A DNA stretch of 63,761 nt, counting the filler, from Elsinoe ampelina (taxonomy: Eukaryota): NCBI GenBank assembly GCA_010093995.1. It is 8 parts of 4 records of this genome, joined end to end, with 100 filler letters (N's around TTAATTAATTAA, not from the genome) between each part and the next. Parts side by side here need not be neighbours in the genome. Positions count along the whole stretch, not along the records: positions 27,592 to 36,194 come from ML992508.1; 7 more parts are not named here. One strand, written 5' to 3'. The position numbers and the translations under genes were made by a program. Shown here in pieces: positions 17,894 to 50,988 of this stretch; within the stretch, counting starts at the first letter, position 1; every line of letters starts with the position of its first letter. Below the pieces are notes generated by a model. That model saw only the letters and a list, made by a program, of their open reading frames with translations, ran no database searches and was not told the origin of the DNA.

Positions 17894-19070
17894 ATGACAC
17901 AGGAACACGGTGCCAATACAATGCAAGCCGCCCAGATCATTGAGGTAGGCAAACAACTACGTGACCGACGTCTGACTTACAGACAGCACAGTTTGGCAAA
18001 CCATACAAGTTGAGCAATGTTCCAATTCCAGAGCTGCCTGAGGAGGGTCTTCTCGTCAAGGTGCACGCAGCAGGCTTCTGCCACTCAGACTTACAAGTCT
18101 TCGAGGGACAATTCGCTGCAGACTTGCCAATGATACCATCTCACGAGCCTGCCGGTGAGATTGTTGCTGTTGGCGGTAAAGTGGAAGGCCAGTGGAAAGT
18201 AGGTGATCGGGTAGGTGTGCTCAATTACAAGCATGCCTGTGGCATTTGTCCTGGCTGCAAGCAGACTATCCGAAGAACGTCAAAGACGGACCCGAGATTC
18301 TGTGAGAAGCGAAAGATGGCTGGGTTCAAGCATGATGGATGCTTTGCCGAGTATATGGTAGCTGATCCAGCAACCACGGTCAAATTGCCAGCCACGGTGT
18401 CGTTCGAGCAAGGTGCACCGCTGATGTGTGCAGGAGTGGGTCACCAAAACTTGAAGAGGATTTACCCAGCATTGACATTGTACAGGCTACAGCTTGGGGA
18501 GCACTTCAAAAACTATTGCCTATGGTGAAAGCAGGCGATCCAGTGGCAATAGTCGGTATCGGCGGAGTAGGCCATCTCTGCCTCCAATTCGCAAAGGCAA
18601 TGGGGTTCAGAGTCGTCGCCGTGGATACAAGAGACGCTGGACGAATTCTAGCGACTGAGATGCCTTCCGAACTCAAGCCTGACTTAATTGTGGACCCAAT
18701 GTCTTCTTCTGTCAAGCAGCAGTTGTACGACTTCACTGCTGGTGAAGGTCTCGCTGGCGCAGTCGTTTGTACAGATTCTCACCAAGGTACCATGTGGACA
18801 TACGAACAACTAGGTATAGGAGGAGTAATCGTGCCTCTCGGCTTACCAAGGGATCACTGGCAATTCGATTCCAGCTTGATGGTTTTCAAGGAGCTTGTGA
18901 TTCGTGGCAGCTACGTCGCAAGTACCTACCAGGTGCAGCAGATGCTCGAATGCGTCGGCAAGCACAAGATAGAGTCACAAGTCACGGTGGTCAACTTTGA
19001 TGACATCCCAGGCATCGTCGACAAATATCTGCAACAATCGATGAAGGGACGTCTAGTAGTCCGAATATAG
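17894..19070 (+). CDS. Zinc-dependent medium-chain alcohol dehydrogenase, 3 exons
   Basis: GFCHSD, SHEPAG (GHE variant), GDRVG, structural Zn CGICPGC...C, APLMCAG, GIGGVG. Introns ~17945-17991 and ~18437-18485. Confidence 0.92.
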
Positions 19071-19401
19071 TCCGCAGCATGGTCTCAAAACGCTTGCCTA
19101 TCACAGAATCCCTTACTTGGCTCCACAATCACACGAGATCAGCATCGAGCGCTGCTATGACTTCGCTTCACGATCAACCCGTCGTTCCCCACAATGGGTC
19201 GGCAAATGGTTGTGGGGCTAGCACAAGGTCGAGCTTCAAGCCCGTTGGAGACACCTCCAACTCCTCGGGCATGCTATCAGCGCCACATGAGCTGCCGATA
19301 CTTGACTCCAACAACACGAGATATCTGACCCGACTTCACTCTATCAATGAGCCTTTGCAAGTTTGGTCTAGCCCGGCAAGTTATCGCAACTCACATGCAA
19401 G

Positions 19402-21115
19402 ATGTCGGTCTTCTTCGATTCAACGCTTAGGTAGTATCCCGCGAAACCTTTGAATTGCTCATCAATTGACCATTTGACAGGGATGATCTTGTGTCAAAGG
19501 GCGATGTCGAGTCACTTCTATCATCGATCGGTGTGGCGAAAGGTATCAACGGGAATGAGTCCGACGAGTATCATGTACTTCTTGCCGCCGTCCACGACTG
19601 CGCCGAGAGAGTTCTGTCACTCCCGGATTATCATGGTGTTCAGCCCGTCAAGTCATACCCTCGAGAGAATGTTCGTCGCTGTCCCCAAGACGAACAGGAA
19701 TTTGGGCATGCTTGGTCACACAAGTTTCTGATTCGTGGTGATGCCACGGGTGACCTTCTGAAGAATAAGAAGGTAGTCATGAAAGATTGTATCTCTGTTG
19801 CCGAAGTCCCACAGCTCTTCGGGACTGATGCGATCGAGCCGTGGATTCCGCAACGAGATGCCACTGTTGTCACCAGGGTTCTTGAAGCTGGAGCGGATGT
19901 TGTCGGAACTGCTATTTGCGAGAATTTCTGTACATCGACATCCTCCTACACCAATGCTCAAGGTACGGTAGAGAATCCGTATGCGGCAGGGTTCTCTGCA
20001 GGTGGTAGTACTTCGGGTGGCGCTGCCTTGGTCGGAGGTGGAATTGTTGACTTGGCCATTGGTGCCGATCAAGGTGGTAGTATCAGACTTCCTGCATCGT
20101 TGTGTGGATGTCAGTGACCCATATCTCATTATCTGTCCATCAAATACTAATATGCCTCACAGGCGTTGGCATCAAGCCTACCCACGGACTCGTGCCGTAC
20201 ACCGGAATCACGAGCGGCGATGCCATCAGCGATCATGCTGGTCCCATCGCACGCACGGTGAAAGAAGCCGCGGCTTGCCTGGACGCAATTGCTGGACAGG
20301 ATCCGTATGATGACCGCACACTTGGCGCTCCAGCGATGGGTACAACCACATTCTCGACTTCACTTGGATCCCGAAGCAACCACGCTGAAAACCTACGTAT
20401 CGCTCTAGTCGAGGAAGGCTTCAATCATCCGCTCGTCAATGCTTCTGTCCGCGAAACAGTTCTTGCAGCGGCTCACAAATTCACATCTCTGGGCGCAACA
20501 GTTACACCTGTCTCACTACCATCCCATCTTCTTGGTCCATCTCTATGGACTATACAACAACGAATTGCAGGCACACAGTCTATCCTAGGTCAGCAGCACG
20601 GCCGCCGGGGACTGTTTCCCACCGATTTCGAAGCGGTCAGGGGCCCGTGGACAGACGAATCATTCAGTCGTCTCTTTCCATCGACCAAGAACGTAGTCAT
20701 TAACGGCTTGTCTCTTATGAAGCGCTATCCGGGTGTGTACAGCAAGGCACTCAACCTCGCTCAGCAAGTCAAAGACGAGTACGAAGCGCTGTTCCAGGAC
20801 TATGATGTTGTCATCATGCCTACTGTACCAGTACCCGCACCAAGAAATTTGAACTACCACAAAGGTGTGGGACCCATGGAGGCATTGAGGCCTAGCATGG
20901 GTCTCACAATCAATACTGCCATCTTCAACCTCACAGGTCAACCAGCTCTATCCTTACCTGTGGGCTTTGTGGATGTAGATGGAAGTGGAGCAGAGAAGGT
21001 ACGATTGCCGGTCGGTATGCAGATCGTCGGTCCTCTTTGGGGAGAGCAAAAGATATTGGATGCCGCATTTGCATGGGAGCAGGCCAACGACTGGCGGACG
21101 TTCCGACAGGGATGA
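19402..21115 (+). CDS. Amidase-signature family amidase, 3 exons
   Basis: Exon 1 MSVFFDSTLR (19402-19430), intron 19431-19480. Motifs KD, GGSTSG, GADQGGSIRLPAS, GIKPTHG, LPVGMQIVG. Intron ~20110-20162. Confidence 0.92.
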
Positions 21116-21394
21116 CAGGAACATCAAGCATGATGAATGGCAATCTATGATGCTAGATAATGCAAAATCATACGAGTAGGAAGTAGATGAACAATTATAC
21201 TGTAGATCGTCCCCTCCGACATGTGATACTGGTCCATGAGCTCCGTCGTTGCAACCTCACAGAAGAACAGTACCAAAGCTCTCAGTAAACCTGTTCTCGA
21301 CCTAAATCATTTTTGCCACATGACTCTCTCATCAGATCCATGCCACTGTGAAAGCTCAAACCTGCCCCAAATCACATAGTATGCTCAGCCCAAA

Positions 21395-22297
21395 TCAATT
21401 GATTGTGTAACCTCCATCGACCACGAGAGCCTCTCCGACTATGAACGATGCTTTCGGTGATGACAAGAATAGTACCGCATTGGCCACCTCCTCGGGCGTA
21501 CCTATGGCAAAGTCAGTCTTCGTTGAGCCGCAACCATTACGCTGTACGTACCCATCCTTTTGACCGGAGCAATGTCGATAGCTGGCTTCAACGACTCGTA
21601 CATTTCCTTGGAACTCATGGTCATGGGAGTTGCAATGACCCCTGGGCAGACACAGTTCACCCTTATCCCATCTTCGGCATAGTCAATCGCAAGAGCTCTG
21701 GTCATGTTGATGACGGCTGCTTTTCCGGCACAATATGCAGCTGCAAAAGATCAGTACAGTCAACTTCTGTAAAGACAACATCCAATTACCGGCACCCGGG
21801 CGGGCAACGATTCCAAGCTGACTGGCAATGTTGACTATGGAGCCTTTCTGCTTTGGTTGCTCATCGAGCGGTTCTTGCTTGAGCATTTGCTTGAGCTGGG
21901 CTCGACAACAAAGCCAGACACCTCGATAATTGATGCTGTTCATTGTGTCGAATTCTGCGGCGCTCATATCGGCGGCTTTACCGAGCTCCTTGCCAAGTAT
22001 ACCGGCGCAATTGATGCCATAGTCGATCCTTGAGAAGCGCTCGACCACGCCACCGATCAAGCTGTCGACAAAGGCCTCATCGGCAATATCTCCTGATTTC
22101 GCAAATATCTCAGCAGAGGCATTGACGTTCAATATGTCTTTCCGGGTCTTTTCCAATGTGGCATCATTGATATCTGTGATTGCTATTCTCTGGCAACCCG
22201 ATGCGGCCAACCCAGTAGCCACAGCATTGCCAATGCCGGTACCACCAGCGCCTGTGATCAAAGCGACACCTGCGAATTCGCCTGTAGTGGATGCCAT
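21395..22297 (-). CDS. Short-chain dehydrogenase/reductase (classical SDR), 3 exons
   Basis: [43 protein letters not shown]. Introns near 21790-21742 and 21547-21502. Confidence 0.9.
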
Positions 22298-22609
22298 CTC
22301 CCTACCATACAAAAACAGCTTCCTACCTTCCACGACAACTGCTATTTTCAGATTGGAGCTTTGAATACCACCTTGGACCCTTGCAAGCAAATTAGACTTC
22401 GATCACGACCATGTCGACGGATGAGGGGTACATGCGCGAGGGGAGATAGCAAATTGGAGACGTCTCAACGGGCTCCACAGGTGTTTCTGATTGATCAAAG
22501 CTTATCGGCTCCACCACCTCCAGCAAAAACTGGTGTCCCTCCCACTGTTCGCTCCATCCTCTCCAATCCTCCTGTCCTCACCACCAAACCCCATACACGA
22601 CCATGTGCG

Positions 22610-25259
22610 ATGGTTGTACACTCGGACCAACGTTCGGGAGCAGTGCCTGGAGTCGACCAAGACGGTGACACCCGCTCACCACGAAGGAGTTCCATTCAGA
22701 GCAACCTCCGAGAACAACGACATCCCCACACGTGCACTCACTGCTCCCGGCATTTCAAGAGAGCCGAGCATCTGCGTCGGCATACGCGAGTTCGTGCGTG
22801 TATCATTTGCTGCCAAGTAGCTTGTTCTGACGTATCAAGACACCGGCGAGAAGCCTTACAAATGTTTCTGCGGAGAGACCTTTGCCCGTCGTGACCTCCT
22901 CACCCGCCACGGCAAGATCGCGAAGCATGATGTGGATGGAGGTCAGATGGAGGCTGTCGCCCACATCCTGGCGGGACAGCTGCAGACCACTAACAGCCAG
23001 CACAACCAACATGCGAATGTCCAACCCTTGCATGACACTGTGATGCCAACCCCGAGGCAGTCGTTGCCGCAGGACGACATGCCGCAGGTGGATCCCTCGG
23101 CTCCGTCGCTGCAAGACATGCCAATGGAGCAGTATGAGCCTTACTATGACGATAGTATCGATACCTTTCGGGACTTTGTCGCCTTCATCGATGGTGTGGG
23201 CATGTCCGCTTCATGGACACCTGAATTCGACTTTGATTGTACAGGAAACACGAATGATTACAATGAGCAGCAACAGTTGTCCGGTCAGCTGGACACGCCG
23301 CCAAATGACGATGCAGATGAAATTGGCACTCCTTTCAGCACGTGGCTCCCATCCGCTCCGGCGAATGGACAAATTGTGTCTCCCGAGGCCGTCAATGGTA
23401 GGTCGTTGCTCCGTTCCCATTGCACGATCTTCGTTCCACCTGTTCATGTTTGTCTAGAAGACAGTTCAGTACTGATCATTGTGCAGAGCTCCGGCATAGA
23501 GGCTCAAACAGGCCTCCTTACCATGTCTCGGAGGATCAAAGAAGCCTCATGATAGCCTCGCTGCAGAGCTTCCAAGGATCCACTTCCGACTTTGTCCTAC
23601 CCTCACGGCATGCCTTAACACGATACTTGACGGCTTGGTTCTCCGGCTTCCACTCACATCTTCCTTTCATCCACGAGCCTACATACCGACCGTCAAGATC
23701 ACCGATCGAATTGACACTAGCCATGTGCTCGGTTGGTGCGCAATACTGCTTCGAAAGAAGGAACGCCGAGAGGCTTTTTCATGCATCAAAAGCGGTCATG
23801 TATGAGCGACTCGCACGAGAATCTCACAGTCTTGGACCATACACCAAGCCCCTTGCATCTTCGCGCCGACGAAATAGTTCAAGTCCAGTCTTTGCACCAG
23901 AACGATGCGGGCCCTGGACGCTGCTGGATCTAGCCAAGACGATATTTGCATTGGTGGGGTTCGCTACTTGGGAACGAGCCGATTTGCTACAAGAAGCTTT
24001 CGCACTCCGAGGACTACTAGTAGCCAGCCTCCGTGACCTCGGCCTTGAGGAAGAGCGACAGCCAATCACCTCGTCATCGTCCAAATCAGCCATGTGGGAT
24101 CAGTGGGTACGGCGGGAGTCGGCGCGACGGACAAAGCTGATGATATTTTGCTATTTGAATGTCCACAGCGTCGCCTACAATTCGCATCCACTACTTTGGT
24201 CAAGCGAGGTACACCTACAGCTACCCTGCTTGACGCAAGACTGGCAAGCTCGCACAGCATCGCAGTGGGCAGGACTACAAAGGGACGGGAAGTCGGAGCA
24301 AATGTATTTGCAGCAAGCATTGTCGTTATTGCTGGCTGGCGATGACAATGTTCACAAGGTCGACCCCATTCCGAGTCCGCTGGGGAACTACATCCTCTTG
24401 CATGCGCTGCTGCAGCGTATACATCTGGTACGAGAGCTGAGTCTGCCTGGACCTGGTACGGCAAGTCTACCAATCTCTGAGATGCAAAGTATCAGGTAAG
24501 CATCCCGCCCTCAGCTTCAAAACAGGCACACTGACAATTAACGATAGCCGCGGCTTGAGACACTGGACATCAATGTGGCAGCAAGCACCAGAATCCATGC
24601 TCGATCCGAATAACGAGAACGGTCCTGTTCCGTTCACATCTAGCGCCCTTCTGGGTGTCGCTTACATCCGACTGTCTCTCAACATCGGCCCACACCGGCA
24701 CCTCGAGACTCGTGATCCAGATGCCATCGTCGCCGGTCTGGCATTGATGCCCAGGATCGAGTACAATGACAGCTTTCACTCAGCTTTGTTGTACTCTACG
24801 CATTCCCTCAGCATCCCCGTTCGTCTAGGCATCGATCGAGTAGCCAGGAGCCAGGCCTTCTTCTGGAGTGTACAGCATGCACTGTCTAGTTTTGAATGCG
24901 CCACGTTTCTGTCGAAGTGGCTAATGTCTTTGCCCACTGGGTCCAATAGTCGTTCTTTGTCCGGTAAGCCATCCACCCATTCTTGCAGGGCATCTGGCTA
25001 ACAGCTCATAGGCTTCGAGCGGCACATTATCCACTGGGTGCAGTGCATCGTCAAAGAGGCATATGCTGTGGTTGACTTTGAGGAGGCAGAGCTACCTATG
25101 CCCACCGAGCCATACGATCTTGGGGTTGCGGTGTTACGGATCTGGAGCCGTTTCCTCAAGACCAATACACAGTGGCAATTTGTAGCTGTTCTCGGGCAGA
25201 GTCTGGAGAAGCTGATGGGGTCGATGAATGAGTCGTCGCCAACGGCGCTCAGAGGCTGA
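22610..25259 (+). CDS. C2H2 zinc-finger plus fungal-specific (Fungal_trans-like) transcription factor
   Basis: [43 protein letters not shown] across intron ~22790-22839; FHSHLPFIHEPT, ESARRTK, HLQLPC. Divergent from the SDR. Confidence 0.9.
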
Positions 25260-25987
25260 ATAGGGGTCGGAGTATACCTGGAGGATATCATGAGCTACGA
25301 CATTATGCAGACACGATTGTATGTATATCAATTGTCTTTCACAACAATCACTATGAATATTAATAATCGAGCAATCGTTCATGACCATGAAATCCAGGAT
25401 GGGGGTCACCCTGTTCCATTTCAGCCAATCACAGTCCACCCCTCTATTTACCCCCACCCTCGATTGCCTCGCGCAGCAGCAAGCGCCTGTTGTAACTAGC
25501 AAATCGGATCGAGAGATGTGTATTTCATTCAGAGAGTTACAATAACCGATTTATCTACTGTGCGTGCGCTGACTTATTAGTGCTAGTTCTTTAGTACTAG
25601 AGAAGCTATACTAGCCTTCTATTATAACACTCCCTCTCTAGTATAGATTATTAAAGCTAGAGAACTGTCCTATTATATATAAGTAAAGTAATTAGCTTAT
25701 TACTTTATCTCTTTATAATTGTTAGTACTAGCTAATCACTAGTAAGAATTTACTATTAGATTAGCTTATCACAGCTAGCAACAATAGTAACTATTAATAA
25801 TAACTAGGCAGCTATTGTCTCTATTGTTCTATATAAATAGATTAGCTTATAAATCTTAACAAGGGAGATATAAGTATCTAGCTAACTTCTTTATAGTTTC
25901 TCTTTCCTTTATTACACTTATAATAATAGCCTACTATTTTATATTCTACTTTTATACCTTCTATAGCATAAACTAACTCCTTATAGT

Positions 25988-27181
25988 ATAAGTGCTACTA
26001 CTTAGCTAGGCATTAGTAGCATTGCTACTAGTGCTAGAGTACTAGGTAGTTCGCTAGGTAGTAGAGGTAGAGGATATAATCTTCCTTAGTCTAGAGATTT
26101 AACTAGTTCTAAGATAAGAGAGTANNNNNNNNNNNNNNNNNNNNNNNNNNNNNNNNNNNNNNNNNNNNNNNNNNNNNNNNNNNNNNNNNNNNNNNNNNNN
26201 NNNNNNNNNNNNNNNNNNNNNNNNNNNNNNNNNNNNNNNNNNNNNNNNNNNNNNNNNNNNNNNNNNNNNNNNNNNNNNNNNNNNNNNNNNNNNNNNNNNN
26301 NNNNNNNNNNNNNNNNNNNNNNNNNNNNNNNNNNNNNNNNNNNNNNNNNNNNNNNNNNNNNNNNNNNNNNNNNNNNNNNNNNNNNNNNNNNNNNNNNNNN
26401 NNNNNNNNNAATTAACTTAACTAGTTCTCTAACTTATATAGCTACCTTAATAGGAACTAGTACTACTAGAAGAGTTATTTACTATAGTACTAACTACTAT
26501 ACTAAGTGTTAGAGCTCTACTCTAGGTAATAATAGTAGCCTTAGTAGGGCTAGCAAGTTTAAGTAGTGTATTATAGTCTCTAGCTAGTTCTATAGTGCCT
26601 ACACTAACTATATCTATAGTCTATAGTATAAGACTTACTCTCTTATCTAGTATACTCTAACTCTAAGACCTCTAAAAGAAACTTTAAGTAGTTTAAGGCC
26701 TATTACCTAACCTGTTCTATATAGCCTAATATACCTACTAACTAAGCTTCTAAGGTCTTTCTCTTTTAGTAGTGCTTTACCTTAAAGGTTCTTACTAAAG
26801 CCTACTTCTTCTTATAGTAGGCCTACTAACGTTATTAATAAGTCCTTAGTGTATCCTAACTTACGCTACTTTATTATAGTCCCTATAGACTTTGCTAATC
26901 TAGTAAATCCTATATAGGCTAAGCTCTAGGCTCTATAGATTATTATAGCTAGGTTTACTATAAGTATAGCTAAGAGTATATCTAGTAAGAGAAGTAGTCT
27001 TCTAACTATTTATACCTTTACTATACAAGGTTTAGCTAGTAGTATAGGTTATATAAGGAATGTATCTAGATCTTCCCTAAGAAACGAAAGGTTAAGGGCT
27101 AACTCTAATATATTAATAGGTAGTAGATCTTATACTAGCTCTAAGAGCTTTAAGAGAATAAGAACTCCTCTAAGAAAGTAA
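25988..27181 (+). pseudogene. RIP-inactivated antisense accessory ORF of Copia (DUF3716-like), allele 2
   Basis: De-RIPed CTKC-x19-C-x10-CTNC-x8-C (GKFKQCVVVSGQF.GACTNCVYG.QYKTCSL) at 26498-26644; in-frame stop AAG TAA at 27179-27181; interrupted by gap 26125-26409. Confidence 0.65.
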
Positions 27182-27591
27182 TTAGTAGAGTATAATAAGT
27201 AGTTAGTAGTATAGAATAGTAGTTAGTATTAAGTAGTAGATATAGCTTAGGTATAAGTAGCTAGTAATAAGGTTATAATAGCTTTTCCTTTCTCTCTTTT
27301 TAATGTTAGAGTAACTTACTTTAAGTTTTTAGACAAATAAGATAGCTTAATAAGTAGTAGTAGCATAAATAACATACTTAAAATAATAATACAAATAAAA
27401 TCTAAATAAGTATATAGTATAGTAATATACTAAATAATTAGCTTTTACTAATTAGTTAAGGATCTTATTAGGAGACTTAGGCTTTATAAGTNNNNNNNNN
27501 NNNNNNNNNNNNNNNNNNNNNNNNNNNNNNNNNNNTTAATTAATTAANNNNNNNNNNNNNNNNNNNNNNNNNNNNNNNNNNNNNNNNNNNN

Positions 27592-30500
27592 TAAGAGTTA
27601 GAGAAGGTATATCTTATAGATAATAAAGTACAATTAGATAGTATTATAAAGGCTAGCCTTAGTAATACTAGTGTTCGCTATCTAGACAAGGTTAACTATA
27701 GTACTTATATAAGGTAAGAACTATTCCTATATATATATGTTCTATATTATATACTCTATATACTTTATATACTTCGTAGCGAGAGTTAGAGGCAATATAG
27801 AGTACATGTCCGCTAGTAACCTACGTACTCTATAGTCTCTAGGGTAGAGCTACTAGAGAAGATAGAGAACTAAGTAAATGTTAGGCTAGGTTATATAATA
27901 ACCTTAGTAGTTTAATTAGTTCTAACGTCTCTACGCTCTAGCTATTCTACTAGTTCGTAACATTACTCTTCTCCTTTAATCGAGTTATCTTAACGAGTAA
28001 GTATTCTTTCTTATCCTTATACGCTATGTACTAAATATGCCTCCTAGTTGTTAAAGACATAGTAAATCTAGTATATCTATACGAAAGAACCTCTTAGAGT
28101 TTATTAAATTGTTTAGAACTAATATACTATAAGCTTACTCTTATTATAAGTCGAAAGAGCTAGACTATAAAGTCTATATTCGGTCGGGTATTTATAGCTA
28201 GTATGTTATAAGTAACTATCTAGGTTATAATATTTAAGTAATAAAATTAAAATAGTAGCGTCTCTAGTCTAAGTATATTTGTTTACGAAAGGAATTAGTT
28301 ATAGCTAAGGCTACTAGAAAGGAAGCTAAAGAAGCTTATAAAAAGGTAAAAGAGGCTTATTAAAGAGCTATAGGCAATAAGCCTTACCTATATAAAGAGA
28401 TATAGAAATTAAAGAATAAGGTAGAGAAAGTAATCTCTCTAGAGAAAATCTATATTTAAGTTCTAGAGTAAGAAGAAATACTATTATTAGTAGATTCTAT
28501 TCTACTATAAGATTAGTAATTATTTATACCTAACTCCGATTAGAGTTTCTTATTTAGTAACGATTAAGGTGCTTCTATTAGCTAAGTAGTTTTCCTTAGG
28601 CATTCTCGTTTTTGTTTAGTATTAGTAGTGTTAGGCCTACCTAGTTAGTTTACTTAGGATAGGTTTTTAGTCTAGTAATCTAGAATTGCTTATAAGGTAA
28701 AGTATTTCTCTAGTTCCTATATTACTTTACTATACTAATGTCCTTTCTAGTAGATAAGATAGTAACGCTTTCCCCTTATAGATTTATAACGTAAAACTCT
28801 TTTAATCTTATACTATAGCTTCTATATCTCTTTATCTAGTTTAATAGGTCTAGGTACTCCGTCTTATAGTGCTTTTTCTAATAGTAATATATAAAAGACT
28901 AAGTGGATTCTTATATGTCTAGGTAGTTCTAGTTTATATATGTTTTTGTTTTTCTTTTCTAGGATCTTAAAGGGTTTTAGTTTAGTATAGTTAAGCTTCT
29001 TACTTAGTTGTTTCGTTTTAATATTTTTACTAAGGAGGTAAACTTTCTCTCTCTCCTATAGAATTAGTCCTATAATTCTCTTCTAGTTAGTAAACTCTAC
29101 TATTCTTTATAATATAAATACTATATCTTAGTATAGCTAGTTATATAACTTCTTAATATTAGCTACTAGTATATTTATATCCTTAGATATTAGCTTAATT
29201 CTAAGTGTGTTATAGTATAGATCTAGGTATATTCTATAGTTTACATAGAATAGTAAAACTCTATTTGCTAACTTTCTATTATTAATAGCAAGCTCTACGA
29301 GTAGTAATAGAGTTACCTATAAGTCTTACTTATAGTTTAGATAGTAGCGTAGGTACTACTCTAGTACTTAATTTACCTATTTAGTTTATCTATCCGTTTA
29401 TAGGTAAAAGAAGGTTAATAGCTTATATTTAACTCCTAGTAGATCTATAAATAATTACTAGAATTGTAATATAAAGAGCTTATCTCTATCGGTTATTAGG
29501 TCTTATAGTACTCTATACTATAAAACAATTATTTAGAGAAAGATAAAGGCTATATTCTTAGTAGTTGCTATTATCTTATATAGTATAAAGTAGTAGTACT
29601 TCGTAAACTTATCTACTAGGACTAGAATACTATTATACTTCGCACCTATAAGAGGCTCTTCTAATAGCGGTAGAGGTCCTATAAAGTCTATCGTAACTAA
29701 TTACTATAGTTTATCTAGTAGTAGTAAGGGTTATAGTAAGCTATATAGCTTATATTATAAGTACTTAGACTTATAGCATATATTGTATATAGTAATATAT
29801 ATCTTAACATCGTTTTAGAGTTCTTTCTATAGGTAGTTCTATATAATAAGTTTAATAGTCTTATTAATCCTACTATGTCCTACTATTAGATTATTATAGT
29901 ATATTTAAATAACTTTCTATTTTTGTTCTCTCGTAAGCTCCTAGGTAAGGCTATATAACTACTCTACCTTTAGGTGCTTATAGACTAGAGCGCTATCTTA
30001 CTACTTTAGTATAGAGGCCTCTATTATTATTATATTTTTTAAGTAATTCGGCCGGTAGCTAAGAGTATCTACTCTATCGTTTTCTAATCCCTTAACGTAA
30101 TAGATCTAGAAGTTATAGCTTATAAGTGTCTCTAACTATCGTACTTGTCGTCTATTAAGAACCTTAGTAGTTGTCTAATATAGAAAGTTCTTATAGTCGG
30201 TATAGACTTATATAGGTAAGGTTATTCTTTCTAGGTATACTCTCTACTTACGGAATGCCTTTATAATTATAAGTAGTTCCTTATTATATATATTATAGTT
30301 AAGTTTAGGTCTAGTTATTTTCTGTAAATAATATATAATTAGGTAGCATTATTCTTCCGCGTCTTTCTATACTAGATACACTTCTATTATAAAGTCTAAT
30401 ATATCTATCTCTAGTAGTGCTTATTAGTCTAGGTCGAAGAGTACTAAGATAGGTACTATTATAAGTCTAAGCTTTAGCTCCTTAAAGGCTTACCTATATC

Positions 30501-33500
30501 TTTTGTTAAAGATAAAGCTAGTTTTCTTTTTCGTAAGGTTAAATATTAGTATAGCTACCTTAGAGAATCCTTTAATAAACTTATAGTAGTAGTTAAAGAA
30601 TCCTAGTAGCGCTTAAACCTCCTTAACTATTATAGGTTCCGGCTAGTTATTTACTAACTTAATCTTCTTCGGATTAGGTCTAATACTATTAGTAGATATA
30701 ACATAGTCTAGAAATTGTATCTTATATTTATAAAACTTATACTTAGAGAGCTTTACTAGTAAGTCTTTTTCTTTTAGTTTCTATAGCACCTTACGAATAT
30801 GTCCTATATATTTATTATACATCTTTAAGAAGATAACAATATTATCTAAATATACTAAGATAAAGTTATTAAGGTATTCTTATAGAGTGTTATTAATTAA
30901 CTCTTAGAAGGTTATAGAAGCGTTAGTTAACCTAAAGAGTATAATAAGGTACTTATATAGACTCTATTACGTCCTAAAAGCCGTTTTCTACTCCTTGCCT
31001 TTCTTTATTTATACTTAATAATAAGCATCTCTAATGTTAATTACGGTAAACTATTTAGCTCTAAGTAGTCGGTCTTAAAGTTTGTTAATCCTTAGTAGGG
31101 GATAGTAATTCTTCCTAGTAAGTGTATTAAGTTTCTAGTAATTAATGCATATTTATAATATTCTATCCTTTTTAGGTGTAAAAAGTACTCCGTGTATAAT
31201 AGGTAATTTTAATAGTTATATAAATCCTTTAAGTAGGTACTTATCGATATAGTTCTTAAGAATATTCTTCTCTTATCTCGATAGTAGTATAAGACCTTAA
31301 TAGTATATCGGGGATTTACTCTCTTTAAAGAGTATTTTATAATTCTATAGTTTATATTAGAGTAAGGCTATAATACTTTCTCTTTCTTTAAATAAGTTCT
31401 TAAAGTCTTTATATTCTAGTAGAAGTACTTAATCGCTTACGCTAGCGATAGCTCTAACTATTAGTCGTACCTATACTATCCTTATAGTTAGTATCTATAG
31501 AGCTAATTATGCTCTCTATATTCTATAATTACACTTAGGAAATTTAAGTGTTTCTTTAATCTAGTCTATATCTAGATTATATTATTAAAGCTAGTCTATG
31601 CTAAGTACTATATTATACTATATATCTACTATATCGATTAATTGTTTTTCTATATATATTTTAATTTTAATTATAACGTTTTATAGTTCCTAAGTAACTT
31701 TCCTATTCTTCCCTATAGGAGTTCTATCTACTATAGTAAGTAGGTAAAGTAACTTCTTCTAATATTAATAAGGTTTAAGCTAGTTAGTAACTGTTATAGA
31801 AATATAGCTATAGTTAGCTCCTAAATCTATTATTACTCTTACCTTATTCCTTTATATTTTAACTTCTAGTATAAAGTAGTTTAACGTGTAGATTTTTATT
31901 ATATTAAGGCTTTAGCTAGTGTTATTATCTTACCTTATTAGGTAATAACTAGCTAGTTTTTTGTTATTATAGCTCCTTAGATAAGTAGCTAATCCCTTCC
32001 TATATATATCTACTATTAGTACTATACCTATTAGGCTAGTTATGTCTTATTACTATTTAATATAGTAAGGTAGACTTCTAGCACTTAAGTTCCTTAATAA
32101 CTATAAAGTCTAATAATCCTCTACTAATTACACTAAGTAGTATTATACACCTATATCGATATAACTATTCCCTCTAGATAGAGCTATATATTAGCGTTAA
32201 AGACGAACGTAGGTTAAGTAGGTTTATCTTATTATATCCTACTCTAGTAGTAGGTGTATATTATTATATAATTTCTCTATATTTCTATAAGGTATACCTT
32301 AAGTTGTCTACCTAGTAGTAGTATATCGTTGTTGTTATTATTATTAGGTAAATCCTTATCTATATTATTATATCGTAGTTATTTAGTATATTCTTCGTTA
32401 TATTTCTCTTTATTGCTATTACCCCTAGTATAGTTATAATTAGTAAGGCTATACTAAGTATATTCTTATACTTAGCTATAGGGAATAGCACTATCTATTT
32501 TAATTACCGAGAAGTCCGTAGTATACTTAAGACTAATAGTATCTTCTCTAAGTACATTATATAAGTAGATAGTATAGTACTATTTATAATTTAGATTTGT
32601 ATATTTCTAGAGCGATATATAATATACCTTTCCTTATAGTTCGCTATAAAAGCTAAAGGTAAGGTTACTATATTATTATATAGCACTTACGTTCTAATAC
32701 TTCGTTTTAATAATTATATATTAGTAATTGTCGCTAACTACCTCCTAAGGTTAGTTAATATTACTACTAATTATAGAGAGCTCTTCTAGGTTAGGTTCCT
32801 AGTCTAGCTATTTTATTAGTTACCTATACTTAGATAGCTTATATAGAAACTAAGTAGATCCTTACTTATCTAATAAGTAAATATAACAAGAGTTATTATA
32901 ATATACTATTTATAATAGTGTTACGTATTAGCTTTATTATTTACTATTAGTTATAGAGATATTAAGTGTAATATCTAGAGAGAATTCTATTACCTCTCGA
33001 GTTGTTATAGACTTCTTCTATATTTCCTTACCTACGCTAAGAGTCGTTAGGTCTTCTATAGTAGTATTAGCCTTTTTTTTTACTAGCCTAGTAACTATTA
33101 TATATAATCTATTAGCTAGCGCCCCTTATTAGTAGTCTCTAGCCTAATATCTAGGTCTTTTATTTTTAAAATATAAATTGTCTTATCTATACTTCTCTCT
33201 CTCTTTTCCGCTAAGGAACTTTTCTCTATAGCTATAGCCTTATACTTATAAGAGGCAACCTTCGCGTATAGCGTTAAGTTCTATAGAGTCTCTATAACTC
33301 TAAGAGAAACGCGTATATCTAGTGTTTACCTTATATTCTCTACGACGTTCTATGTGTCGTTTATAGAGTTAGTTATTAATAGCAATTATAGTATCTACTA
33401 GTTCCTAAAGGCTATCCGGTAGCTTAAGTATTATTTAATCTTTAACCGAGTTACTTAGCCCTTAATAGAATATAGAGTGTTTAGTACTATCGTCCTAGTC

Positions 33501-34523
33501 TAGGTGTATTACGAGTTACTAGAACTAGGAATAGTACTAGGCTATAGACCTATATTATTATAGTTATTAGATCTTCGTTATAGTAATACGTTTCTTATTA
33601 GATACGTTAAAGACTTACTTAATCTTTACCTAGAAGATACTAAAGCTCTTAAAGATAGCCTTTATATCTAGGCTTAGTTATCTATCTAGGTAGCTACTTA
33701 TATAAGGCTTAAACTACTTAAAGGCGGCGCCTTTAAAGTATATCCCGGTATAGAGGACCTTTACTACGTCGTTAGCGTACTTATCTCTCTCTAAGGCGAA
33801 GAAGGCTTTAAGCTAGATAAGGAAGCGCCTTAAGTAGGCGCGGTCCCTATAGAAGAGTTCTACCTCTAGCTTAGGCCTACTCTGTCCTTTCTCTATACTA
33901 AGAGACTTTCTATATTTACCCGAGGTTAAACTAGTAGTAGATATATCGTTAATAGTAAGCTTTCTTAGCTTACTAGTGATTAAAGATACTAATAGTAACT
34001 TAGAGCAAGAGTTACTTATTAACCTTATAGCGTGCTATACTATAGTAAGGGTAGTTAAAATGTTATAAACCGTCTAAATATAGCCTATACTAGTAGTCTA
34101 AGCTAAGCTAAGAACGAGGTAGTTCTACTTCTATAGTAGAATAGTACTAAGGTAAGAGTTAGAGAAGGTATATCTTATAGATAATAAAGTATAATTAGAT
34201 AGTATTATAAAGGCTAGCCTTAGTAATACTAGTATTCGCTATCTAGACAAGGTTAACTATAGTACTTATATAAGGTAAGAACTATTCCTATATATATATA
34301 TTCTATGTTATATACTCTATATACTCTATATACTCTATAGTAAGAGTCGGGGGCAACGTAGAGTATATATCCGCTAGTAACCTATATACTCTATAGTCTC
34401 TAGAGTAGAGCTACTAGAGAAGATAGAGAACTAAGTAAATGTCGAGCTAGGTCACGTAATAACCTTAGTAGTTTAATTAGTCCTAACGTCTCTACGCTCT
34501 AGCTATCCTACTAGTTCGTAACA
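27592..34523 (-). mobile_element. Ty3/Gypsy chromovirus copy 2 nested in Copia C; RIP-degenerate
   Basis: Left LTR partial (27592-27962), right LTR complete at 34061-34523 (463 bp, TGTTA...GTAACA). Colinear with copy 1, including RT and chromodomain remnants. Confidence 0.9.
28037..28585 (+). pseudogene. RIP-inactivated antisense Zn(II)2Cys6-like/coiled-coil ORF of Gypsy, copy 2
   Basis: ATG CCT CCT start. De-RIPed MP..ACSRCKSKELDCKVHVRSGICGQCVASNYPGCD, then a coiled-coil-like tract and an acidic tail. Confidence 0.65.
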
Positions 34524-36809
34524 ATTAGCTATTATAATAACTTAGTTATAATAAAGAGTATATACAAGAATTACTCTTCTAGTTTTAGCTCTTAGTATTA
34601 GTATAAAGGTTCTAATAAAGTTAATATCTACTCTTTAAGTAAAGCCCCTTATAGTCTAANNNNNNNNNNNNNNNNNNNNNNNNNNNNNNNNNNNNNNNNN
34701 NNNNNNNNNNNNNNNNNNNNNNNNNNNNNNNNNNNNNNNNNNNNNNNNNNNNNNNNNNNNNNNNNNNNNNNNNNNNNNNNNNNNNNNNNNNNNNNNNNNN
34801 NNNNNNNNNNNNNNNNNNNNNNNNNNNNNNNNNNNNNNNNNNNNNNNNNNNNNNNNNNNNNNNNNNNNNNNNNNNNNNNNNNNNNNNNNNNNNNNNNNNN
34901 NNNNNNNNNNNNNNNNNNNNNNNNNNNNNNNNNNNNNNNNNNNNNNNNNNNNNNNNNNNNNNNTATATATATTAGTAGTTAATTAACATTAACTATAGGA
35001 TTAAAGGTTAAATATAGTTTACTAATAACTTTAGGTAGTAGTATTATAAGGTCTTTACCTTTATAATTAGTAATAGTAAGTTACTTCTCCTATTTATTAA
35101 TAGGTTAAGGATCTAGTTTAGGATGTTAGTATTACTCTCTCTATTCTTTAATAGGGGTAGATAATTATTATTTATATCTAAGGATTAAAGAGTAGTTAGA
35201 TATTAGTTATTTAGCTTAAGGTTATTTAGCCTAAGTAGTTTATAGATTCTTATAACTAAAGGGTAGTTAATTATAGCTATAGCCTTAATAATTATAGCTA
35301 TAGTCTTAATTATAATTACTACTAAATATCTACTTCCCCTAAAGCTATAAAGCCTTAGGTTATTATACCTATAGGATATATAGCTATTTAATAACTTATA
35401 TTACCTAGTCTTTATAGACTATATTCTTATTAAATATTACATAGAGTAATATAATAATCTTTTCCTTCTAGGCTTACTAAGTATAATACTAATAAGATAT
35501 TTAGATAAGGTAATTAGTTATTAAGTTATTCTATATGCTAATATACTAACTAAGTAGTGCTCTAGCTTAGAATTTGTATAATTTAGAAATATATTAGTTA
35601 TAGATATAGGCTCTATAGCTAAAGCGTCTAATATAAGTTAATAAGACTAGCCTATTATTATTAAGAAGATTCTTTCTTAGCTCTTATATAGGGATCTTCT
35701 TAGTTTTAGTATAGGCAATTCTATTACTAATATAGATTATAAACTTTATAACTATATACTAGAGTTTAAGGGGTGCTCTATAATTAATAAAGATATACCT
35801 TGCTCTAAGAATAACTACTTTATTAGTAGCCTTAGATTTACTATTTTAGTATTAAGTATTAGGTATAGAGATATTCTATCTCTACTCTTTAAGATAAATA
35901 GCTATTACTAGTTTATAGTTCTTAAATTTACTCTCTCTATTAGAGATAAAGATAAATAAAAGCTTATTATAAGCTATTTTATTCCTTATATAGATAAGTT
36001 TAATTACTACTAGTATATTACTCTTAAGAAAGAGAATAGTAATAAACTTATACTTACTCTTACTATATATTATAAAGAGAAGATATTTATAGCCCTTACT
36101 TAACTATAGTTTAATAGGACTAATAAGGTCTAGATAGAGCTTATCTAATAAGTACTTTAGTATATCCCTTAGTTCTCTTAATACTACTCTCTATNNNNNN
36201 NNNNNNNNNNNNNNNNNNNNNNNNNNNNNNNNNNNNNNTTAATTAATTAANNNNNNNNNNNNNNNNNNNNNNNNNNNNNNNNNNNNNNNNNNNNTCTCTC
36301 TTAAGAATCTAAGTCTTAAGCATTTTTACTAATCTAGATATAATAATAGTAATTAGCTAAAGGCTTATTAATTTAATTAATGTAATTAGCTTATTTAAGC
36401 CGTTTAAGCTATTTAATTAAAGAGTTAATACGGGCTACTATAAGTGTTTATCTTAATATAGCTAGTCTAGAATTTAGTATAGGCGGCTTAGTAATCCTTT
36501 TAATAATAACATACTTAATTTGCTATAGCTTTAAGTGCTTTTATAGAAGCGCCGGGCTTATAACCTGTTATAACTGGCAAATTAGATCGAGAGATGTGTA
36601 TTTTATTCAGAGAGTTACAATAACCGATTTATCTACTATGCGTGCGCTGACTTATCAGTGCCAGTTCTTCAGTACCAGAGAAGCTGTACTACAACAGCGC
36701 CGACATCACCACTTTCCACTCGTTCATCCTCACATACACTCATTCTCCTGCGCATACTGTCCCAAGTCCTACCAGACCGCCTGACTAACATCGCACATCG
36801 TGACCCAGC

Positions 36810-37767: not shown

Positions 37768-40039
37768 TCATATCTCCACGACCTTCCCAGTCTCCTTTTC
37801 TGCTTCGACCTCCTTGGGTCTGCCCTTCCGATCCACCCTCACATCCCTCGGATCGAACCCTCCATTCCCATACAGCGCCCACTCCGGCGTCTTTTCCCCA
37901 ACATAATCCTCCGGCCCAAACTCCCTCCCACTTTCCAGACAATCGAAAAACCTCTCATAATCAATCAAAGTATGCCACCCATCCTCCTTCTCAAACCTCC
38001 GCCTCTCTCCCATCAGTATACAACAACTATGCGCATGCTCCGCCGCAATCCCGTACCCCAACCCCCTCCTCTGCAACTCCCCATCCAACGCCTCCACAAA
38101 CGCACACACCTCCTCGTAAAACGGCACGTTCCGCATCGTCAAACCCGCCGCCGCACTCGTGCTGGTCCCGCAGTACGTCACGCCCTTCACCTCTATGAAC
38201 CCAGGCCGGGCACGCTCCACCAGATCCGCGTAACCCCCTACTTCTTCCTCGATGTTGAACCCCTTAACCAGCGTCAGGCGGAAGACGGTCCGCTGCATAT
38301 CCCTCTTCTCGCGGAGAATGTCCATGCACCGGAGGAAGCGCTCCCAGTAGTCTCTGTGCAAAGGGCGGTCGATCTTCTTGAGCCCTTCCTTGGTGGCGGC
38401 GTCGATGGAGACGTACAGCTGCGTGACGTGGGACAGGGCCGCGAGTTGATCCGGGTGTTGCGCGTTGCAGACGAGAAAGGTGGAGATGCGTTCGCTGTGG
38501 AGCATGCCGAGGAGGGCGTTGATGTGCGGGTAGAAGATGGGTTCGCCGACCAGACTCAAGGCGCAGTGGCGGATTCGGAGGGCTTCGGAGAAACGCTCGG
38601 CGCGCACGCCGGGGACGCCGCGCATCATTTTGATTTTCTTGTAGTGGCCTTCTTTGATGCCCGCGAAGACGAGGTCGGGAGGGTCGACGGTCCATCGCCA
38701 GGTTGTCGAGACCGGGTTGGTGCCGTGGCGCCAGCAGAAGACGCATTTGTTGCTGCAGGAGAGGGAAGGGGTGGATTCCATGCAGCGGTGGGAAGCGATG
38801 CCGTAGAAGGAGTATTTGTAGCAGGAACCGCGGCCGCGGAGGGCGGATTTGGTCCATCGACAGAGCTTGACGCCCGAGTGGCTGCCGACTATGGTGTAGC
38901 CTTGTTTGGTGAGGGCGGTGTAGGTTGGCGAGATGGTAGGGACCATTTCCTTCGGTTTCGAGGAGGGGATGGTCGTGAAGTCGGTCTCTAAATCGGCAGG
39001 GCCGCGGATGTCCTCGAGGTCAGCCGTCGGAGACGGTCGCTTCCGCTTCTTTCGCCGCGAGCTATCGCTGTCGTCACCCCCGAGGTCAGAGTCGTCGCTC
39101 TCTACAGGGTCGCCACTACCAGTGACGCCTTCTCCAAGGCCCTGTTTCGAGGACAGGCTGAGCATGACTTCCTCGATCCCTTTCCGCCATGCTGATAATG
39201 TCGCCGCCGCTTCCTTCACATCACTTGTGCTGACTGGATATGCTCGCTTCTTTCCCGTAAGCCGGGCCATCCATTTATCCACCTCCTTCGCCTGCGTACA
39301 GAAGCCGTCTGCTTCAGTCGGCCAACCCTCCTTATCACCAGTGCCAAAGACCGAGTATCCCGCGAGTCCACTCAGGGGTGCTGTGTCTATCCGGAAGTCG
39401 TTGTGTGTCTCTGTGAGACTGTCGATGAATGTGGTAAGCTCAGAGTCGATGTTGTATGTCGGAAGAAGTATCATGTAGAATTGCTGAACACCCGACGCTT
39501 TCGAAGGCGATACAAAGTGGTTGTCGAAATCGACGTCTACTATGTTGTGCATTTGTGGCTTGAGTATGGTGACGTGCTGGGTAGCAAACCGCGAGAGCTG
39601 GTCGAATAGTGCTTCTGCCAACTTCGTCGTCGATCCTCCGAGAGAGAAATAGTATATCACAGGCTCAACCCGATATTCCTCAGACTCCTTTGGAATGCCG
39701 TTGCTCTTGTGTGGACTGCTCTTCCGCCCGCCTGTCACTCGCTTCGGTCCTTCCGACTTTTGCCTCGCTATCACCTTGGGTCGTACGAGTGGAAGCTCAT
39801 ATATTTTGTCTTTTGACCCAGTTCGTACGAACACCGCGCCTGTATCCTTCTCCTTCGAGTCCGCAACTGAAGCGACATCTTCGTGTTTTCGCACATGGTA
39901 AATTCGAAAGTATGCCAGAACCAGACCAGTGAGGACGAGAAGTTCGATCCGGTGGGAGTGCCAGATGGCCAGCAGCTCTGAGGGATGTCAGGATAGAGTC
40001 ATACGAATCATTGGTCTGCTTACCAGTGAAGAGCTCCAT
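37768..40039 (-). CDS. TYW1: tRNA wybutosine-synthesizing protein 1 (flavodoxin plus radical SAM)
   Basis: Micro-exon MELFT (40039-40024), intron 40023-39978, N-terminal hydrophobic anchor, flavodoxin-like domain; GYTIVGSHSGVKLCRWTK, CSNKCVFC (CxxxCxxC), HCALSLVGEP, FIEVKGVT, EHAHSCC. Confidence 0.95.
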
Positions 40040-42027
40040 CTCTAGCAGCCGAGTATGTATGAAGGTGGGCCAACGAGATCTTGCTTGGATATCAAAATAT
40101 CTTTGCCCCGCATTCAAGGGTCGAGGTTGGCTCACATTTGGGCCAAAAGCAGAGTGGCTCACGGGCATTCTGCGTCTATATCACAACGTTTTGCATCCAA
40201 CATCAACAACACGACAAGACGATTAGCTATTCTTTTCATCAAAAGCTTCGTGGACCACATTGGAGATATGGGAACCTCATATCTTGATTCATTCTCAGTG
40301 TCACTACGGCGACTGCAGACAGGATGGCCTCAATGATGACAGTGGACTGAATAGAATTTCGATACATACAGCGGCCCAGTGACATCTCTGACCAACAGTC
40401 GCATCGCTCAAAACTGCAGCTGGATCACGATCTGGCTCATGTGCAGAATGGGGACCCAGAAACTCCGTTCTAATGTGGCTGCTCAGGACTCATGCCCCGC
40501 GCACCAATGACTTCCAGACTGCCCGTAATGGCATTGCCACCGAGACTCGGTCGACTCATTATCACGCTTCATGCTGGCAATACAGCATGCGTAGACCTGC
40601 CGATCGCTTAGCACGCTACCAGATTGGTCCCTAACTCTGGACATGTGAGATGCGAGGAAGTTACGTCCAGCTTCTGTTCAGACATCTGCTTGGATGACAC
40701 TCCTCCGCGGTGCTCTACCTGAAGACGCACCTGACGGGTAGAGGTGAAAGACTGGGTGGCCTCCACAGACCTGCTTCAGCCTGCACTCCAAAAGCCTGCA
40801 CTCCAAAAAGAAGTTGCTTACCATGGACATTCTTTGGCCTCCGCTCGAGGAATCCTGTCGGGATCACGGAGTTGCGGTATCGCCACTTACTCTAAAAGGC
40901 AGGGTATCGCCAGTTCGGTGATCTTCCCTCGTCAGTCCAAAGTGAAAAACAAGTGAGAACACACTAAAAAAGGTACCGGGGAGGCCCCCTCTTCTCACCA
41001 CAGTGAGTCCGACGAATCGGTGCTCACCGCGGATCGAACAGTGGTCATCATCGCTATCCGACTCGATTACTAGCAAGCTAGTAAAGTCGTCGAACCACTA
41101 GACCTGAGACTTCCCCGTGGTGGTTTTAGCTGCTTGCACATAATATGATCTCATGCCTCTGCGATGATGGATGAGACCGGGACTTGGCGGCATGTGATAT
41201 CAGAGGTCTGTTCGACCTTCGACAGGACACGACATTGAGACGGCATGGGAATGCTTTCTCTGGCATCACTATGGACATGCATCTAGGTCTTTGCCGGTCA
41301 AGATCCCACCTATCAATCTGCTGGTAGTGCATGAGGGCGCTTGGGTCTGCAGCTCGAGTGCTGATGGCAGTATAGGTACAAGATCACGACTTCTGCACCT
41401 CTGAGTACGCCAAATGATCGCTCACCCGATGAGTGAGATTTCCTACTAATGTTCTGTATGAATCAGACCAGTATGAACTCTTGCCGGATCGAGTTTGGCA
41501 CGGGCTTGGACACGGCTCAAGGCGGCTAGAATCATACAAGCCAAGGCACTATCACACACGTCGTCAGTCGAACAGCGGACGTTGCTCAGCATGTATCCCG
41601 TGCCGAGATTGAGGCATGTCATAGCGATCAGGCCGTTGCCACCTCGTGTCTGCACAACGGCCCCTGGGCATTGACATACCAAGGGTCTTCTTTGAGTATC
41701 TCAACGTCCGTCACGAAATTTCGCCAGCCCTACCATTCCGATCCAACCTCCCGGGAGGTGTTGGTAGCCTGGCCGTTGCGGGTTGTATGGCAAGACGAAC
41801 CGTTGGGAGGCTGACCAACGACCGAGATTCAAACGGCGGCTTTATACCATAACGGCTTTTACAGCCACATGACGACTACAATGAATCGGTTCGCACGACT
41901 AGACGGATTATATATATCTTACTGGGACTCGCTGATGTTGGTCATCGCATTCTCATACCTCATCACCGGTAGAGAACAGGAACCGCTTCATTTGCATTTT
42001 CAAGTCTTGCTGGGCTAGACTATCACC

Positions 42028-50888: not shown

Positions 50889-50988
50889 NNNNNNNNNNNN
50901 NNNNNNNNNNNNNNNNNNNNNNNNNNNNNNNNTTAATTAATTAANNNNNNNNNNNNNNNNNNNNNNNNNNNNNNNNNNNNNNNNNNNN

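Follow-up and report, generated by a model that had tools for sequence, protein, structure and literature searches.

An antisense gene of ascomycete Ty3/Gypsy chromoviruses, probably encoding a zinc-cluster protein, and its two inactivated copies in Elsinoe ampelina

Introduction

The window analysed here is a stretch of 63,761 nucleotides of DNA from Elsinoe ampelina (assembly GCA_010093995.1), along which all positions are counted. It contains two copies of a Ty3/Gypsy retrotransposon of the chromovirus type, each of which carries, between the chromodomain end of pol and the 3' long terminal repeat (LTR), an antisense open reading frame (ORF) of 183 codons, at 6989-7537 (copy A) and 28037-28585 (copy B) on the plus strand. 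The ORF is an extra gene of the retrotransposon itself, one that a group of ascomycete Ty3/Gypsy chromoviruses has kept. Both stretches are copies of this gene that have been killed by repeat-induced point mutation (RIP). The reading favoured here is that its product would regulate the element itself, most likely by activating or autoregulating the transcription driven by the LTR. This reading builds on four observations, namely the homology of the frame to natural proteins, its position and orientation in relatives of the element, purifying selection on the protein, and a spliced transcript of the ORF's own strand in one relative.

Results

Two inactivated copies of one reading frame

Both copies begin with ATG, and when they are aligned end to end with natural homologues no frameshift is encountered over the 183 codons, which agrees with a preliminary description of the window that had claimed about 182 codons free of frameshifts in each copy. 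Copy A now contains 18 in-frame stops (10 TAA and 8 TAG) and copy B contains 17, none of them TGA, and transitions, 61 of them in 549 bases, are the only differences between the two copies. The codons at residues 34, 37, 44, 53, 56 and 64 are TAY in both copies, each of them a single G>A step from TGY, and their spacing corresponds to C-x2-C-x6-C-x8-C-x2-C-x7-C, followed by a tract rich in K, E and A. The former six-cysteine (Cys6, Zn2Cys6-like) module lies at 28136-28228 in copy B (residues 34-64, with a conserved KV(H>Y)IRSG core) and at 7088-7180 in copy A, while the K/E/A-rich tract of copy B, placed approximately from the alignment at 28244-28486, is the counterpart of the homologues' long helix, which spans residues 75-159 in the homologue P0001. 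With 17-18 stops, and with tyrosine in place of all six cysteines, both window copies are dead.

The spacing of the six tyrosine codons, which the preliminary description had read as Gal4-type in both copies and which is present as described, is not in itself beyond chance. Tyrosine and cysteine together account for 7-11% of the codons in the six frames of four AT-rich blocks of the window, and a pattern that accepts either residue at each position, with the ranges of spacing allowed in the family, occurs 14 times in those frames. Because the pattern thus recurs at about eight other distinct loci of RIPed DNA, the six-tyrosine spacing alone proves nothing, and because every TAA or TAG can be attributed to RIP, the window sequence by itself cannot prove an open frame. 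Pfam models applied to the window frames, with stops represented as X, and to five other frames of the spacer returned nothing usable, and Zn_clus was not matched.

What raises the ORF above chance is homology. A search of 1.84 billion representative proteins with a profile of the two window frames (stops again as X) gave eight matches at E<=1e-3, the best of which, P0001, a natural protein of 199 amino acids, was matched over positions 10-152 of 183 with an E-value of 3.5e-13. Six of the eight are normal proteins of 175-211 amino acids, and the remaining two, P0003 and P0005, look RIPed themselves. The six TAY positions are cysteine in every un-RIPed homologue aligned, so that the claim that these codons had once encoded cysteine is borne out by relatives less mutated than the window copies, in which tyrosine, histidine or arginine might have been found instead. 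Tyrosine 47 of the window frames corresponds to a histidine that lies inside a conserved C-K-V-H-V-R-S-G motif, an in-frame TAG aligns with tryptophan, an ATA aligns with a conserved methionine, and an N-terminal Met-Pro is common to the window frames and the homologues.

The agreement was quantified over the 54 alignment columns that are conserved in the sense of being kept in at least five of the six natural homologues. Copy A is identical to the conserved residue in 27 columns, reachable from it by C>T or G>A changes in 23, and neither in 4; the corresponding counts for copy B are 25, 25 and 4. The real frame is therefore compatible in 50 columns, as compared with a mean of 9.5 (standard deviation 2.7) and a maximum of 19 among 1376 control windows drawn from elsewhere in the same RIPed element, and it is compatible in all six cysteine columns, as compared with at most four of six in the controls. 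That a gene once stood here is virtually certain.

The two RIPed matches, P0003 and P0005, have tyrosine where other members of the family have cysteine and look like translated RIPed copies; wrecks of this kind are being annotated by gene callers. For the window itself the practical message is a modest one: the two RIP wrecks, which lie in its AT-rich compartment, should not be called as genes.

The carrier is a chromovirus

The carrier of the ORF is a RIP-mutated Ty3/Gypsy chromovirus on the minus strand, as is evident from its LTR pair, its polypurine tract, its Pol remains and its decay by transitions only. In element B, which carries copy B, the segments 27592-27891 and 34153-34452 are direct repeats (92% identity) that represent its LTRs, and alignment of four LTR regions gives an LTR length of about 463 bp. 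The LTRs are accordingly placed at 27500-27962 (3' LTR of element B, minus strand, with a gap linker at 27492-27591), at 34061-34523 (5' LTR of element B, minus strand) and at 6452-6914 (3' LTR of element A, minus strand). The LTR begins with TGTTACGAAC on the minus strand, at 27962 in the case of the 3' LTR of element B, and a polypurine tract lies just upstream of it at 27963-27977 (minus strand), an arrangement that is found in relatives as well. RIPed Pol remains, comprising reverse transcriptase, RNase H and integrase on the minus strand, match the Pol of an intact relative at 32-33% identity over 865-896 residues (tblastn), in the spans 31416-28870 in element B and 10368-7732 in element A; a chromodomain-like end, read by eye, extends the remains in element B to near 28668 (28668-31416, minus strand). 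The ATG of the ORF stands 75 nt from the edge of the 3' LTR, and the antisense position beside this LTR that had been proposed for the frame is thereby upheld. Elements A and B are 89-90% identical across 6.5 kb, and beyond copies A and B no further copy of the ORF was found within the window.

The AT-rich blocks of the window bear the marks of RIP. The window alternates between GC-rich gene blocks (about 50-54% GC) and AT-rich blocks (about 25-29% GC), and in both elements the ratio TpA/ApT is 1.78-1.94 and the ratio (CpA+TpG)/(ApC+GpT) is 0.15-0.17, as compared with 0.55-0.58 and 1.23-1.34, respectively, in the host gene blocks.

Conservation of the gene and of its position

A profile built from six homologues matched 73 proteins at E<=1e-3, nearly all of which are unnamed and none of which carries a precomputed Pfam domain; one of them, P0075 from Lithohypha guttulata, has been named a 'Zn(2)-C6 fungal-type domain' protein by UniRef. 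Clusters of the family in the ESM Atlas have 62-140 members, all from Ascomycota where the source is known. Among 8000 candidates no longer or fused form reached E<=0.01, a negative result of little weight.

In metagenome contigs 60 loci of the family were located, 32 of which (the 31 longer than 4.5 kb together with L001) were looked at in detail. A minus-strand ORF of at least 250 amino acids follows the match in 22 of these 32 loci, and Pfam identifies all 22 such ORFs as Ty3/Gypsy Pol; a chromodomain closes 20 of them, and those of L018 and L049 contain pieces of reverse transcriptase/RNase H only. When all 60 loci were searched with one Pol sequence (tblastn), the C-terminus of Pol was found on the opposite strand, tail to tail with the ORF, in 48, at positions that range from an overlap of 109 nt to a few hundred nucleotides past the end of the ORF. 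The linkage to LTR elements which the preliminary description had named as a check on its proposal is therefore observed in natural relatives. Of the 12 loci in which no Pol C-terminus was detected, nine have less than 600 nt of contig left, the Pol match of L035 stops short, and L024 and L025 have no Pol at all, both of them representing the same gene, P0008, on a 115-kb contig.

P0008 (175 amino acids; L025:9977-10504 and L024:5087-5614) lacks any trace of Pol in the 10 kb to either side and is the only clear case of a family member away from an element. Its C-terminus is shorter than that of the family, and it may be either a relic or a domesticated copy.

The LTRs of the relatives can also be recognized. 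Exact terminal repeats of 123-174 nt are present in 11 of the 20 long contigs examined, as expected when the two LTRs of an element collapse in assembly, and in eight of these 11 contigs the interval between gag and the ORF contains, by eye, a purine run followed by TGTTA(C/T/A)G, which is the same LTR start as in the window. The distance from the LTR start to the ATG of the ORF in these eight contigs, also read by eye, is 45-115 nt.

The U3 (unique 3') regions of the relatives, likewise inspected by eye, contain repeats of more than one kind. Those of L005, L010, L012, L014 and L015 have repeated GCTCAGTG / CACTGATCA units and CACGTG palindromes followed by a TATATAG box, and those of L013 and L032 have GAGAGCAA-type repeats instead.

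Selection and transcription in relatives

The ORF is intact in 35 of the 60 loci, and in the others it is cut by contig ends or is degenerate, often in AT-rich form. The intact loci provide 29 distinct coding sequences, among which 14 pairs have a synonymous divergence suitable for comparison (0.05<dS<1.5). The ratio of nonsynonymous to synonymous divergence (dN/dS) is below 1 in all 14 pairs, with a median of 0.15, and it is 0.03-0.15 in the eight pairs with at least 72% identity. The ORF protein is under purifying selection.

Transcription was followed in one relative, L019, whose places 400-2000 are present in 22 leaf-litter metatranscriptome runs, probably from one campaign. Four runs were compared with the locus, and RNA contigs from three of them skip the 62 nt at L019 places 1311-1372. 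This segment, which lies 18 nt past the stop of the ORF and inside the last codons of pol, reads G|GTATGT ... CTGAC ... TTTAG|G on the ORF's strand and constitutes, in antisense orientation, a canonical fungal intron. The contigs give neither strand nor level, and the transcribed strand is identified as the ORF's own because the segment has a GT..AG junction with a fitting branch site. A contig of X23, a run of unspecified type, reads on into the intron. Exactly these 62 nt are missing from the two independent contigs L016 and L018, and L017 and L019 retain them. Among 28 distinct intact loci, 11 have a match to a strict intron pattern 1-29 nt beyond the stop. The spliced antisense RNA contigs reach at least 750-1230 nt from the ORF into pol.

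An intron had also been proposed upstream of the frame in the window, at 27997-28047. This candidate is not supported: the homologues begin with Met-Pro at the aligned ATG, and the RNA contigs of L019 contain no joint upstream of the ATG at places 239-720.

A further gap in L018 (at 4447-4448) corresponds to 53 nt of L019 (1839-1891) in the integrase region. The missing segment is CT..AC on the plus strand, and hence GT..AG in the sense of pol, its length is not a multiple of three, and no contig other than L018 was seen to lack it; the gap is due either to a deletion or to variant splicing of the sense strand.

Build of the protein

In an alignment of 65 natural members the six cysteines, one histidine and one glycine are each at least 90% conserved. 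Zinc clusters of the Gal4 type (Zn2Cys6) obey the spacing rule C-x2-C-x6-C-x5-12-C-x2-C-x6-8-C, and 60 of the 65 members conform to it as C-x2-C-x6-C-x8-C-x2-C-x6-8-C; the gap between the third and fourth cysteines is always 8, and the gap between the fifth and sixth is 6 in 35 members, 7 in 17 and 8 in 8. A stricter PROSITE-like pattern is matched by only 6 of the 65. The protein of intact relatives has about 160-220 amino acids, with a median charge of +3 over the 30 residues before the first cysteine and of -6 over the last 45 residues, and it ends in an acidic aromatic tail with the consensus L-x-L-S-P-x-T-W ... P-D-x-F-W.

The structure predicted by AlphaFold2 from the 65-sequence alignment (predicted local distance difference test score, pLDDT, 83.7) has a helix at residues 17-31, two short helices at the cysteine pairs, and a long helix at residues 75-159. 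The natural family thus has the same succession of a Cys6 module, a long helix and an acidic tail that had been read from the mutated window frames. In a Foldseek search of the PDB all 23 rows listed at ranks 1-27 are Zn2Cys6 DNA-binding domains, which come from Leu3, Hap1, Gal4, Pho7, Put3, Ppr1, Lac9, AlcR and the CBF3 complex; the matched CBF3 chains are presumably Cep3. VIA-align gave superpositions on Hap1 (Z 3.1, 2.3 A, 39/41), Lac9 (Z 2.2, 1.9 A, 33/33) and Pho7 (Z 2.1).

The long helix may serve for self-association. A model of two copies with zinc received a pairing score of 0.50, as compared with 0.02 for the best control; the score mark used is reached by 21 of 30 solved one-chain pairs and by none of 23 single chains (17 of 29 and none of 30 for eukaryotes), and the model was run without the family alignment and with zinc, which makes the job unlike the calibration. 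At least 93% of the contacts agree between runs, with a partner pLDDT of at least 78, and the modelled dimer is antiparallel and centred on residues 106-109 (residue 123 pairs with 88, and 109 with 109). The model supports self-association, without showing binding.

Setting of the elements in the window

Blocks of the form N44-TTAATTAATTAA-N44 occur at 6242-6341, 13087-13186, 27492-27591, 36195-36294, 50889-50988, 60843-60942 and 62349-62448. They lie mostly within LTRs and look like contig-joining linkers with stops in all frames, which would make the repeats there assembly breaks. A long tandem array of period 8, with 68 overlapping copies, occupies 26099-26640 just outside element B (N at 26125-26409), and a direct repeat of 128 nt (91% identity) stands at 25486-25613 and 36564-36691, about 2 kb from element B on each side; another repeat may enclose this element.

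The host genes between the repeats (15771-24499, 37771-47024 and 55526-56980) encode an amino-acid transporter, an amidase, a GH16 protein and others. A TYW1-like radical-SAM/flavodoxin protein is encoded at 37771-39987 on the minus strand, and a GH64 glucanase gene lies at 42019-43539, the best named relatives of which are from Elsinoe fawcettii (73%), E. australis (64%) and Sphaceloma murrayae (57%), as fits the genome of an Elsinoe-like dothideomycete. The nearby transcription factor at 22097-24499, considered as a possible bona fide Zn_clus gene, consists of C2H2 and Fungal_trans domains instead.

Discussion

The proposed role

The gene could act in its element as follows. Transcription would start in or at the 3' LTR and run antisense to the other genes of the element, a start that is placed there because the ATG is only 75 nt from the LTR edge. 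The protein would consist of a basic N-terminal helix, the six-cysteine module, a helix of about 85 residues and the acidic aromatic tail; the Cys6 module would bind two zinc ions and DNA, the long helix would pair two proteins into a homodimer, the acidic tail would recruit the transcription machinery, and the protein would in this way regulate the LTR-driven transcription of its own element. A regulatory role as such is put forward tentatively, at somewhat less than an even chance.

The preliminary description had called the module a Zn2Cys6 cluster. That part of its claim which concerns cysteine spacing stands and is joined by the predicted fold, and on these two grounds the module is likely a zinc cluster; a direct Pfam assignment does not follow, since the best Zn_clus score is 16.9 bits and the cut-off is 21. 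The family resembles Gal4, Leu3, Hap1, Lac9, Pho7, Put3 and Ppr1 in the spacing of the six cysteines, in the helix after the cluster and in the acidic tail, and its predicted fold superposes on those of Hap1, Lac9 and Pho7 at 1.9-2.3 A. The histidine between the third and fourth cysteines aligns with that of C-D-A-H-E-R in Leu3, and in profile alignments to Lac9 and Leu3 all six cysteines and the histidine are in register. It differs from Gal4-type factors in falling below the Pfam cut-off, in its small size (about 190 amino acids), in having no fungal-specific middle domain, in having a single 85-residue helix that is modelled as an antiparallel pair, and in being encoded by a retrotransposon rather than by the host.

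A number of results weigh against a Gal4-like DNA-binding regulator. The Zn_clus cut-off (PF00172, 21 bits) is reached by none of the 65 members, the best scores being the 16.9 bits of P0075 and 16.1 of P0022, and 32 members give weak matches at E<=10. The Foldseek E-values are 0.2-4.3, with none at or below 1e-3, and the VIA-align Z-scores do not exceed 3.1, values which are usual for a domain of 40 residues and are not decisive. Profile searches of the PDB bring up Lac9 and Leu3 marginally (E 0.19-1.3), amid noise from coiled coils and ribosomal zinc ribbons. One subgroup of the family scores better with DUF3716 (PF12511, cut-off 22 bits) than with Zn_clus: P0019 reaches 22.9 bits, six more members score 15.3-19.5 bits (E<=0.02), and 11 of the 65 match at E<=10. 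Gal4-type factors pair through short parallel coiled coils, from which the antiparallel model departs, and by our estimate the modelled dimer would set the two Cys6 modules about 11 nm apart. Finally, no clear site of the CGG-N-CCG type was seen by eye in the U3 regions of eight relatives.

Alternative readings

The alternative that survives best accepts a real and conserved gene, and takes the six cysteines for a zinc module like that of DUF3716, whose binding partner would be protein or RNA, with a role in particle or cDNA handling, in the choice of integration sites, or in defence against host silencing. It draws on the failure of all 65 members to reach the Zn_clus cut-off while one reaches that of DUF3716 and six more come within several bits of it, on the unusual geometry of the modelled dimer, and on a precedent, since a six-cysteine DUF3716 protein of similar size (REP9-1, 193 amino acids) is described on an unrelated DNA transposon of Zymoseptoria tritici (PMC8232023). 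Against this, the Zn2Cys6 spacing rule fits 60 of the 65 members, every one of the top structural matches listed is a Zn2Cys6 DNA-binding domain, the basic N-terminus and the acidic tail suit a transcription factor, and DUF3716 may itself be a divergent zinc cluster, so that this alternative is considered unlikely, if still one to be reckoned with.

It might also be proposed that what matters is the antisense RNA rather than the protein: a transcript that starts from the 3' LTR and overlaps pol at its 3' end would control the element, either by forming double-stranded RNA or by interfering with transcription. The extension of the spliced antisense RNA contigs for at least 750-1230 nt into pol would suit such a mechanism, as would the overlap between the ORF and pol, which amounts to as much as about 100 nt in many loci. 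Purifying selection as strong as that on the protein (dN/dS 0.03-0.15 in the eight closer pairs) and the conservation of the six cysteines, the histidine and the glycine across 65 members make this highly improbable as a full account; a role of the RNA could coexist with that of the protein.

The idea that there was never a gene, and that a tyrosine-rich RIPed spacer happens to show Gal4-like spacing, which does recur at about eight other loci of the window's RIPed DNA where RIP could explain any TAA or TAG, is already refuted by full-length homology to natural proteins (E 3.5e-13), by 50 of 54 compatible columns where no control exceeds 19, and by the same position of the gene in 48 of 60 relatives, and its probability is negligible.

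Relation to known systems

The element's own antisense regulator gene, as it is proposed here, would have an analogue in an animal retrovirus, the human T-cell leukaemia virus HTLV-1, whose HBZ is a dimerising transcription factor of the basic leucine zipper (bZIP) type that is expressed antisense from the 3' LTR as a spliced mRNA. The likeness to the present family would be one of logic only.

The nearest precedent, as judged from descriptions of its position and strand, is brtn of the element Boty, which is described as an extra gene on the opposite strand between pol and the 3' LTR of a fungal Ty3/Gypsy chromovirus (PMC7264820, PMC8365987, PMC4227169, PMC5987419). The passages of these citing papers that describe brtn make no mention of a zinc cluster, and the present family is set beside brtn by description only. 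No protein named BRTN is among the 73 family matches, which is weak evidence since most of them are unnamed. In position, strand and conservation as a protein, and for L019 also in having an antisense transcript of its own, the present gene agrees with the brtn-like class of antisense extra ORFs called aORF-3R.

Antisense extra ORFs of plant retrotransposons (Grande, RIRE2, Retand and PvRetro13) also lie between pol and the 3' LTR and, according to the account given in one of these papers, are conserved within families and of unknown function, with a regulatory role having been proposed (PMC7264820). They differ from the present family in that they sit mostly in non-chromovirus lineages, and the likeness is again one of position and strand. 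The DUF3716 proteins REP9-1 and REP9-2 (six cysteines, 193 amino acids) are described as products of the IS3EU-like DNA transposon REP9 of Zymoseptoria tritici, with function unknown (PMC8232023). The present family shares with DUF3716 proteins a weak to borderline hidden Markov model similarity over the whole 59-position model, as well as a home on mobile elements; it differs from the REP9 proteins in that its elements belong to another class and in that only one of its 65 members reaches the DUF3716 cut-off. In the literature searched no zinc-cluster antisense ORF of fungal Gypsy elements was found, and subscription journals and supplements may hold more.

Significance

By the published accounts consulted, LTR retrotransposons with antisense extra genes came to light decades ago in plants and in 2011 in Botrytis. 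What is added here is a recognizable build, with a Cys6 module, a helix modelled to dimerise and an acidic tail, together with natural intact copies, purifying selection and a spliced transcript, and the function of the gene is therefore directly testable with natural sequences.

A wider proposal is possible, though it is more doubtful than assured. A group of ascomycete chromoviruses may encode a Gal4-like factor from a spliced antisense gene that is driven by the 3' LTR, as a counterpart of the antisense regulators of retroviruses, and this factor might either control LTR transcription or bridge distant DNA sites such as the two LTRs, the latter on the condition that the long antiparallel dimer is real; the DUF3716 proteins of fungal DNA transposons might then represent the same invention in a different class of element. 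If the protein binds the LTR, fungal retrotransposons would be shown to be able to carry their own transcription factor, and this, if true, would have a bearing both on the means by which these elements evade or adjust control by the host and on the spread of zinc-cluster proteins in fungal genomes.

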